Virus record (IMG/VR): IMGVR_UViG_3300029914_000110
Direction: 5' to 3' (one strand)
Source of the DNA: a virus
DNA length: 27,491 bases
The notes under the pieces were generated by a model. That model worked only from the letters and a program-made list of their open reading frames with translations. It did no database searches and was not told the origin of the DNA. The position numbers were made by a program, and so were the translations under genes. Positions 19,946 through 20,838 of the stretch are shown piece after piece. The stretch's first letter is position 1. Each line of letters starts with the position of its first letter.

Positions 19946-20215
19946 TTTCAATCTTTCAATCTAACCCCGAGACTTTCCGGGGATGTAACACTCATTAATA
20001 CTGTGTTTTGGCTCTTTCAATCTTTCAATCTTTCAATCGAACCCCGAGACTTTCCGGGGATGTAACGTGCTTTTCGAGTTCCCTATGATTATTTTTTCAA
20101 TCGGACCCCGAGACTTTCCGGGGATGTAACTCGGTCGAACTGTTTTGATGAAGGATGCACTCAAGTTTCAATCTTTCAATCTTTCAATCGAACCCCGAGA
20201 CTTTCCGGGGATGTA
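19946..20215. repeat. Cluster of four copies (the last degenerate) of a 37-nt hairpin element, GTTTCAATC-GAACCCCGAGACTTTCCGGGGATGTAAC. Copies are preceded by 1-3 tandem TTTCAATC octamers and separated by irregular gaps of 27-50 nt.
   Basis: Copies lie at 19953-19989, 20030-20066, 20094-20130 and 20181-20215. The stem is CCCCG/CGGGG. Read on the minus strand the unit is GTTACATCCCCGGAAAGTCTCGGGGTTCGATTGAAA(G/C), so it ends in the CRISPR crRNA-tag-like octamer ATTGAAAG. Confidence 0.8.
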
Positions 20216-20217
20216 TA

Positions 20218-20603
20218 CTAGCTTTCCTTCGTGTACGGGCAATTCTTGCAACCGTTTCCGCAGCACTTCCCGCGACTCCGCAGATATTCCGCTGTGAACA
20301 CCACCTTACCATCTTCTACCGTATACTCGGTATTTTCAGCTTGAGGCAGGAGGGTCACCATACCAGCTTTGCTACGGTAGATGAGATGGAGAAACCCGTC
20401 AAACTCAACATACTCGGTACTGGTTAGTCCCCAATTGTCCCAAGTTTCCCGGTCTGTAATCAAGATGCGGTTCGTGGGGGGCAAATTGAAACTCCTAACC
20501 TTGGCATCCCGAGGCGCGGGACGGGTTCCCTTAGCAATCGCAATCATCTCCTCGCGCAGCGATTTCAGCGACTGGATTTTCAGTTTGCCCGTCATTTTTT
20601 CAT
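20218..20603 (-). CDS. Hypothetical protein, about 128 aa, with a C-terminal CCGNGCKNCPY cysteine cluster.
   Basis: ATG at 20603 with a GGGGG site. The track's TTG extension is unlikely. Confidence 0.55.
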
Positions 20604-20639
20604 TGATGCCCATTGTTACCCCCAACTGAGAAAATTTAA

Positions 20640-20717
20640 TGGTGGCGATAGGTGGATTTGAACCACCGACTTCCTGCTTATGAGACAGGCACTCTGGCCA
20701 ACTGAGTTATACCGCCA
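20640..20717 (-). tRNA. tRNA-Met(CAT), or Ile2 if modified to lysidine; CCA encoded.
   Basis: Acceptor GGCGGTA, anticodon stem CCTGT/GCAGG with loop CTCATAA, T-arm GGTTCAAATCC. Confidence 0.8.
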
Positions 20718-20755
20718 TGTATTTGTGTGAGTCGGATTTTACGTAGACGCTATTA

Positions 20756-20838
20756 GTTTCAATCTGACCCCGAGACTTTCCGGGGATGTAACGGTGCATT
20801 AGTTTCAATCGAACCCCGAGACTTTCCGGGGATGTAAC
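20756..20838. repeat. Two further copies of the 37-nt hairpin element, separated by only 9 nt.
   Basis: Copies at 20756-20792 and 20802-20838, each preceded by ATTAGTTTCAATC. Confidence 0.8.

Follow-up and report, generated by a model that had tools for sequence, protein, structure and literature searches.

The window analysed here, 27,491 nucleotides (nt) of DNA from IMG/VR virus record IMGVR_UViG_3300029914_000110, is phage DNA that encodes RIIA (phrog_612, 1e-98), RIIB (2e-56) and 13 tRNAs. Within this stretch, a 37-nt unit (GTTACATCCCCGGAAAGTCTCGGGGTTCGATTGAAAG in the minus-strand reading) occurs in seven copies across three intergenic spots, on the same strand as all 13 tRNAs and all large open reading frames (ORFs). 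A first-pass annotation, made from the letters of the window, had described seven such copies that start with GTT, contain a hairpin and end in an 8-nt tail that is often duplicated, and had read them as CRISPR-like repeats. The description proved accurate: the core CCCCGGAAAGTCTCGGGG was found seven times, on the minus strand only (six exact copies and one with a one-base deletion, at 27314-27331, where a C is lost), while dinucleotide-preserving shuffles gave a mean of 0.03 matches.

Each unit is laid out as 7 nt, the arm CCCCG, an 8-nt loop, the arm CGGGG, TTCG and an 8-nt handle, ATTGAAAG, for a total of 37 nt. The tail is present twice after unit A and three times after both B and D, and the motif GATTGAAA was counted 13 times in the window, where 1.04 occurrences were expected; 12 of the 13 lie within or beside units. 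RNAfold predicted a hairpin of 5-6 bp, the energy of which is unexceptional for its composition (z = -0.9). The copies are grouped into two mini-arrays, D-C-B-A with three gaps and F-E with one, and a solitary unit G, all of them intergenic (Table 1). Gaps from repeat to repeat measure 9, 27, 40 and 50 nt, and they include handle copies and duplicated flank rather than regular, unique spacers of ~35-40 nt. The 'spacers' themselves span 9-34 nt, and only S1 and S2 look like ordinary unique ones. S3, most of which copies what comes after unit A, goes back to a tandem duplication of a repeat together with its flank.

Table 1. Repeat units, intervening sequences and neighbouring features in the window.
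Feature	Position	Strand	Description
Extra handle after A	19945-19952	minus	one tandem copy of ATTGAAAG; then AGCCAAAACACAGTATTAA, then the ATG of ORF 19504-19920
Unit A	19953-19989	minus	repeat, sequence GTTACATCCCCGGAAAGTCTCGGGGTTAGATTGAAAG
'Spacer' S3	19990-20013	minus	24 nt; first 19 nt are a copy of the sequence following unit A
Extra handles after B	20014-20029	minus	two tandem copies of the 8-nt handle
Unit B	20030-20066	minus	consensus sequence
Spacer S2	20067-20093	minus	27 nt, AATAATCATAGGGAACTCGAAAAGCAC, unique
Unit C	20094-20130	minus	tail TCCGATTGAAAA
Spacer S1	20131-20164	minus	34 nt, TTGAGTGCATCCTTCATCAAAACAGTTCGACCGA, unique
Extra handles after D	20165-20180	minus	two tandem copies of the 8-nt handle
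Unit D	20181-20217	minus	opens with TATAC, not GTTAC; begins directly after the stop codon of the DUF5522 ORF
DUF5522-family ORF	20218-20613	minus	131 aa from ATG; between the two repeat clusters
tRNA-Met (CAT)	20640-20716	minus	follows unit E by 39 nt in the direction of transcription
Unit E	20756-20792	minus	tail TCAGATTGAAAC
F-E gap	20793-20801	minus	9 nt, TAATGCACC; too short for a guide
Unit F	20802-20838	minus	repeat
Sigma-70-like site	27251-27280	minus	TTGACA-18 nt-TATTAT just downstream of unit G; consensus match only
Unit G	27302-27337	minus	solitary, slightly degenerate, 36 nt; one C missing from the 5' stem arm

An exact-pattern search of IMG/VR returned the unit on three viral contigs only, which originate from two metagenomes, and a wider pattern for the repeat family found nothing in that database beyond the same three contigs. 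The JGI metagenomes yielded 13 short contigs with the unit, all belonging to a small number of related sample series; five other hits had unrelated loops and were due to chance. On contig L025, four regularly spaced copies (spacers of 36, 29 and 29 nt) lie ~115 nt downstream of an ORF for Csb2 (TIGR02165, E = 2.5e-13). A full-length Csb2 of 421 amino acids (aa; P0001) was then found in a protein database and located on four further contigs, L026-L029. L026 encodes, in order, a terminase large subunit (phrog_15, 8e-23), a Mom-like protein, a tRNA, an 87-aa ORF, Cas3g, a 249-aa protein, Cas7g (Csb1) and Csb2, followed by a leader and an array of the identical repeat. Its Cas3g scored 436 bits with TIGR02621 (cutoff 400), its Cas7g 57 (cutoff 38) and its Csb2 65 (cutoff 45). 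The same repeat adjoins these signature genes in L025-L029, and not within the window. The cas-adjacent arrays of these sibling contigs are regular, with spacers of 29-36 nt that vary from strain to strain. The cas operon lies among phage genes, and the system is phage-borne and has no adjacent adaptation genes: none of cas1, cas2 and cas4 was found on contigs L026-L033, nor was Cas8g (Csx17) recognised in the locus. Searches with Csb2 in PDB sequences gave no match, and the Csb2 fragment found no relative in IMG/VR.

The leader of L026 carries a feature of its own. Between the csb2 stop codon and the first repeat (7925-7985) lies a long, near-perfect inverted repeat, GCGAACCCCCTAAAATTG...CAATTTTTAGGGGGTTCGC, which may be a terminator or a protein-binding site.

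Several sequence blocks connect the cas-bearing contigs to the window. In L029, F, TAATGCACC and E come in this order after the csb2 leader, and positions 1542-1626 of this contig are identical to window positions 20840-20756 (100% over 85 nt). The tail of L029 equals that of L023 (98.6% over 661 nt), the head of which in turn equals window 20898-21837 (100% over 940 nt). The junction in L023 was seen again in a second sample (L021), which argues against an assembly chimera. L026 and the window have in common a strong hairpin that follows a tRNA, differing by a compensatory A-U to G-C change, and the promoter region of L026 resembles that of the viral contig L002. Finally, L015, a 97% variant of the D-A region of the window, contains a segment consisting of CCCCGGTCCAG, a repeat with a GAAGGTAT loop and GTTATGA, which is otherwise found at the distal end of the cas-adjacent array of L028. 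The shared blocks, tails, hairpin and array segment of L029, L023, L026 and L015 thus place the cas operon and the window in one recombining phage population.

The unit can be assigned to a specific subtype. In the type I-G system of Thioalkalivibrio sulfidiphilus, Csb2, a fusion of Cas5 and Cas6, cuts the repeat 4 nt 3' of the hairpin base, which leaves a canonical 8-nt 5' handle, and Csb2 remains on the 3' hairpin (PMC9638904). The phage unit has this I-G geometry (~36-37 nt, hairpin, 4-nt linker, 8-nt handle). It resembles the repeats of T. sulfidiphilus and of the bacterial loci L030 and L032 in its length class of 36-37 nt, its GC-rich hairpin, its 4-nt linker and its handle ATTGAAAG, and the phage array is likewise oriented with, and placed downstream of, cas3g, cas7g and csb2. 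The repeat that the first-pass annotation had likened to types I and III is thus of type I, specifically a I-G repeat, found in identical form beside cas3g-cas7g-csb2 in sibling contigs. In contrast to I-G arrays, the window copies have no adjacent cas genes, show irregular and short spacers, and carry tandem duplications of the handle.

Bacterial homologues of the phage Csb2 share 50-58% identity with it; one is encoded on a 2.77-Mb contig and one in a metagenome-assembled genome of Candidatus Sulfotelmatobacter. The operons of these relatives consist of the same four genes without adjacent adaptation genes, and are followed by arrays of 9-21 repeats of 37 nt, with the structure GTTGCAATCCCCGC-loop-GCGGGGTGGAATTGAAAG and spacers of 35-40 nt. 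Phage and bacterial operons are alike in encoding a ~250-aa protein instead of a recognisable Cas8g, and in the lack of adjacent cas1, cas2 and cas4. Common to the phage repeat and the bacterial repeats (L030, L032) are GTTnCA, TCCCCG and the whole 3' part CGGGGTnnnATTGAAAG, with 16 of 37 columns invariant. C-rich and G-rich arms are present in both, while the stem-loops differ: 5 bp with an 8-nt loop in the phage, and 6-7 bp with a loop of 3-5 nt in the bacteria. Degenerate bacterial copies show compensatory changes in the stem (CCCTGC/GCGGGA and CCCCGTC/GACGGGG), and this covariation supports the hairpin by comparison despite the z-score of -0.9.

Three further observations concern these operons. 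The ~250-aa protein is encoded at 4898-5647 in L026, 6093-6851 in L030 and 2938-3711 in L032, and none of these three proteins has a recorded Pfam family. The bacterial arrays of this I-G clade hold up to 20 unique spacers despite the absence of adjacent cas1, cas2 and cas4. Furthermore, the bacterial cas operon of L032/L033 contains a single diverged I-G repeat, GTTGCATTCCCCGTCTCGGACGGGGTTGGATTGAAAA (3791-3827), flanked by the 257-aa gene and cas7g. The stem of this solitary copy covaries with that of the array repeat, and the copy may be a regulatory element resembling a CRISPR RNA (crRNA).

None of the Rfam CRISPR-DR families was detected in the unit at gathering or E-value thresholds; the best, CRISPR-DR7, reached 15.4 bits where 37 are required (E = 9.3) and matched the handle repeats only. 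In the window as a whole, Rfam recognised only tRNAs. The 37-mer gave hits at chance level only in INPHARED and PLSDB. No array of the phage repeat was found in a set of one genome per species covering 185,579 species, which returned three single chance hits to the pattern ATCCCCGG-N6-8-CGGGG-N2-4-GATTGAAA; this pattern was too strict for the related bacterial I-G repeats (ATCCCCGC...AATTGAAA), which surfaced through the homologues of Csb2.

Comparison between strains indicates how the repeat loci change. The 'spacer' is an exact duplicate in L002 and L004, and includes duplicated upstream flank in L003. At the G locus, L035 and L036 contain two back-to-back partial copies with zero spacer, and the more distant relative L001 contains a mini-array of three repeats. 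At the F locus of L034, a deletion between two GGAAAGT motifs has left a half copy. Strains also vary in how many extra handles they have, with two in L029 and three in L023, and two in L002 and three in L009; the bacterial arrays have none, and neither do the regular, leader-proximal repeats of the cas-adjacent arrays. The duplicated flank, the microhomology deletion and the varying handles argue that these loci change by slippage, microhomology deletion and recombination, and not by Cas1-Cas2 integration.

In the relatives L001, L002 and L003, mini-arrays and solitary units are located a few bases downstream of TTGACA-16/17 nt-TATnnN sites. This position downstream of -10 boxes, itself read from sequence, suggests that the units would be transcribed and that the repeat is not itself the promoter. 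Other units in relatives are found 5-12 nt before start codons or directly after tRNAs. In the window, 25 nt separate the end of unit A from the ATG of the next ORF (19504-19920), without a Shine-Dalgarno sequence, and unit G is situated between the stop codon of an ORF and a promoter-like site. A scan predicted no promoter or terminator at the window units and no promoter upstream of them, and the hairpin is not followed by a T-run.

Given the identical cas-adjacent repeat and the shared geometry, the units are very probably I-G repeats cognate to the phage-borne system. The explanation that we favor overall, with moderate confidence, is that they are bona fide type I-G repeats of a CRISPR-Cas system carried by this phage lineage, and that the window copies, situated among the tRNA and accessory genes, are orphan, partly degenerate mini-arrays. 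The units would be transcribed within minus-strand transcripts, in which Csb2 would bind the CCCCG/CGGGG hairpin and cut 4 nt 3' of it, before ATTGAAAG, releasing crRNA-like RNAs. The source of the enzyme could be a cas operon in another part of the genome, a sibling phage infecting the same cell or, possibly, a I-G system of the host. RNAs derived from S1 and S2, which have unique spacers of 27-34 nt, could load into complexes of Cas7g and Cas3g and guide these against competing elements, a use already suggested for the arrays of phages (PMC7162821) and the mini-arrays of viruses (PMC6858448). Units with 'spacers' of 0-24 nt or with duplicated ones, together with repeated handles, would be products of slippage or recombination and are probably non-guiding. 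The repeats double as recombination junctions, by which cassettes are shuffled between strains. That any unit of the window still works as a guide is possible, but we consider it somewhat doubtful.

A number of observations weigh against bona fide repeats of a phage-borne system. No cas genes were found in the 27.5-kb window, either when ~25 ORFs were scanned with Pfam, PHROGs and PADLOC or when the cognate Cas proteins served as tblastn queries; that the window is without cas genes and is no canonical array had already been annotated, and both statements were upheld. The 249-aa protein at the position of Cas8g had no match in NCBIfam, PADLOC, PHROGs or PDB sequences. Gaps of 0, 9, 11, 12 and 17 nt occur among the loci, some 'spacers' are duplicated flank, and in a guide made from a unit with duplicated handles, the seed end would begin with 8-16 nt that do not correspond to a target. 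No protospacers were detected for S1, S2 and two cas-adjacent spacers (four exact 20-mers against IMG/VR), for 13 concatenated spacers (BLAST against INPHARED), or by fuzzy matching within the loci fetched by then; as these searches were limited to exact 20-mers in IMG/VR, to INPHARED and to the fetched loci, and did not cover metagenomes, they constitute weak negative evidence. In addition, metagenome contigs could be chimeric at repeats. In the reverse comparison, spacers of the bacterial I-G arrays (L030, L032) gave only chance-level matches of at most 17 nt to the phage loci (E >= 0.01).

A bolder extension, which we think unlikely, is that the CRISPR repeat has taken on roles other than guide production. 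Repeats dispersed over the genome and their expandable handle tracts would then serve as sites of Csb2 binding and cleavage, amounting to a Cas6-type RNA-processing regulon on a virus. If true, sites at transcript starts, after stop codons, before start codons and beside tRNAs could punctuate or stabilise tRNA and mRNA, or tune the availability of Csb2 and Cas7g.

The first-pass annotation had likened the pattern to solitary mimics of host repeats, of the kind described as RNA anti-CRISPRs (Racr). On this reading, transcribed units would bind the Csb2 and Cas7g that belong to a type I-G system of the host, so that these proteins end up in aberrant complexes and the phage is protected. Several features fit such a decoy: conservation is strict in the hairpin, the 4-nt linker and the handle, whereas 'spacers' are short, duplicated or missing; the window is free of cas genes; in relatives, solitary units are placed at approximately +1 relative to strong promoter-like sites, which is where PMC10651486 describes such units; and lineages that could plausibly be hosts, from the same habitats, possess I-G systems with repeats that share the 3' half CGGGGTnnnATTGAAAG. 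However, the units are identical to the phage's own cas-adjacent repeat and no closer to any bacterial repeat, from which the stem-loop differs, and a decoy would also poison the system of sibling phages. No acr gene was identified near the units, though no search was aimed at such genes, and the genome set of 185,579 species yielded no array of this repeat. On balance, decoys appear an improbable explanation.

The term solitary also fits poorly. The rule applied in PMC10651486 admits no other full or partial repeat within 100 bp; units A-D are 27-50 nt apart and E and F 9 nt, so six of the seven copies would be excluded by that pipeline, and only G is solitary. The likeness to the units of that study lies in a phage-borne CRISPR repeat with a conserved hairpin, in its frequent position shortly after a promoter in relatives, and in G as a solitary copy. 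The differences are that most copies here are clustered, that the cognate Cas genes are phage-borne and that no matching host repeat is known. The annotation had added that such elements are often reported near tRNA genes, which finds no support in the main text of PMC10651486, where no word begins with 'tRNA'.

Alternatively, the repeats could punctuate RNA in a Csb2-dependent and guide-independent manner, with long tRNA and mRNA transcripts cut at gene boundaries so that mRNA 5' ends are defined and Csb2-capped 3' hairpins are left behind. The units are indeed found at gene boundaries only (D after a stop codon, A before an ATG, E before tRNA-Met), as are those that precede start codons or follow tRNAs in relatives. 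Zero-length spacers are tolerated, and the retention of Csb2 on the cleaved hairpin (PMC9638904) would suit this role. Yet many units are clustered in groups of two to four where one site would suffice, some have their own promoters and no downstream gene, and strains of the same population lack particular units without visible compensation, as illustrated by the half copy at the F locus of L034. We know of no precedent for such Csb2-dependent punctuation, and regard it as quite unlikely.

Regulatory crRNA-like RNAs of the CreA/CreR or crlRNA kind, in which the I-G complex, directed by short or partial spacers, would repress promoters and leave the DNA uncut, are highly improbable. The short 'spacers' of 9-27 nt between repeats resemble regulatory mini-arrays that have been described, and the solitary, diverged repeat inside the I-G operon of L032 would be in keeping with a regulatory use. 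However, no spacer matched promoters or other sites at up to 20% mismatch in the window and the loci fetched by then, the sole match being duplicated flank; the 9-nt gap is too short to be evaluated for partial target matches.

That the units are non-CRISPR elements such as phage promoters, intrinsic terminators or attenuators, the first and last of which the annotation had listed among its alternatives, is barely credible: they are intergenic and contain a hairpin, their TTGAAA resembles a -35 box and G lies between a stop codon and a promoter-like site, but the identical sequence is the repeat of a cas-adjacent array, units of relatives lie downstream of -10 boxes, and neither a T-run nor a promoter or terminator was found at the units. 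Two specific candidates were ruled out: a promoter of the form TTGAAA...TATTAA, as TTGAAA is 14 or 22 nt from the nearest -10-like hexamer and the scan was negative, and a terminator, as there is no T-run.

Bona fide I-G repeats of a phage-borne system have parallels among known viruses. Huge phages carry CRISPR-Cas systems with compact arrays (PMC7162821; also the type I-F system of Vibrio phage ICP1, as cited there), and resemble the present lineage in having an interference module without Cas1, Cas2 and Cas4, in their short arrays, and in being tRNA-rich phages with translation-related genes. Unlike in those phages, the subtype here is I-G, the repeats are scattered over several loci as mini-arrays and solitary copies, and no spacer targets were found. 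The Sulfolobales viruses SPV1 and SPV2 (PMC6858448) likewise contain intergenic arrays of 1-3 spacers at several loci per genome, along with stand-alone repeats, and their spacer content differs between closely related strains. The D-A and F-E clusters conform to this type of virus-borne mini-array in being short intergenic arrays, with three gaps and one gap respectively, on a viral genome. The SPV arrays depend on host Cas proteins, have host-like leaders and contain spacers that demonstrably target sibling viruses, whereas the lineage described here has its own Cas genes, shows no targets, and several of its 'spacers' are duplicated flank or handle copies.

Phage CRISPR-Cas systems with compact arrays and without adaptation genes (PMC7162821), mini-arrays (PMC6858448) and solitary units (PMC10651486) are thus already established for viruses. 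Our literature search found no report of a phage-borne type I-G system. What is added here is this subtype, a single lineage that combines a cas-adjacent array with solitary repeats and promoter-driven mini-arrays, the tandem duplication of the 8-nt handle, and clear evidence at population level for repeats as recombination junctions. An anonymous hairpin repeat in the tRNA region of a phage is now tied to a specific CRISPR subtype. The data indicate a lytic, tRNA-rich phage lineage bearing rIIA and rIIB, with a minimal I-G interference module and scattered mini-arrays and solitary repeats. Its population data point to arrays that evolve by slippage, leaving handle duplications and zero-length spacers, rather than by adaptation. 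The lineage is a natural system for asking whether repeats scattered over a viral genome are guides, decoys or RNA-processing signals, and it illustrates that a scan of a single window can mistake phage-owned repeats for host mimics.

Beyond the repeats, the window encodes an HNH endonuclease, Ku, PTH2, two R2K ATP-grasp proteins and a protein with major vault protein domains. The right 10.5 kb of the window had no match among sequenced phages (megablast against INPHARED). In an attempt to extend the sequence past position 27491, a window protein was used to find further contigs, which measured at most 6.7 kb and ended at repeats.

The accessory set is located at 5074-7836, 18323-19168 and 22002-23075, and consists of Ku (PF02735), the two R2K-clade ATP-grasp proteins, the PTH2 peptidyl-tRNA hydrolase and an arginyl-tRNA-synthetase-like protein. 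The last of these, 357 aa in length, matches only in short stretches, in the catalytic region (residues 19-56) and in the DALR anticodon-binding region (268-356). An ORF of 819 aa (2484-4943, minus strand) contains the shoulder and repeat domains of Major Vault Protein (PF11978, 3.5e-26), which is unusual in a phage.

Directly after tRNA-His (26010-26081, minus strand), the window contains a strong hairpin of ~55 nt, TTCGTGACTATCAACCTCT...AGAGGTTGATAGGTTCATGAC, with z = -6.2; its counterpart after a tRNA in the cas-bearing contig L026 (1988-2057) has z = -7.4 and the compensatory A-U to G-C change. Four tRNA genes are overlong, at 21870-21958 (89 nt), 23382-23474 (93 nt), 23669-23802 (134 nt) and 26816-26911 (96 nt), and may contain introns or insertions. 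The 134-nt gene was detected by Rfam and missed by ARAGORN.

The motif CCCCGGTATACTGT occurs in three copies on the minus strand (2108-2136, 7843-7871 and 11953-11981), each just upstream of a ribosome-binding site and a start codon. Given its likeness to a -10 region accompanied by a fixed element upstream, the motif may represent a phage-specific class of promoter. At the edge of the window (27422-27491), a 12-nt tandem repeat lies inside a truncated ORF, and the sibling contigs L035 and L036 begin within the same ORF.

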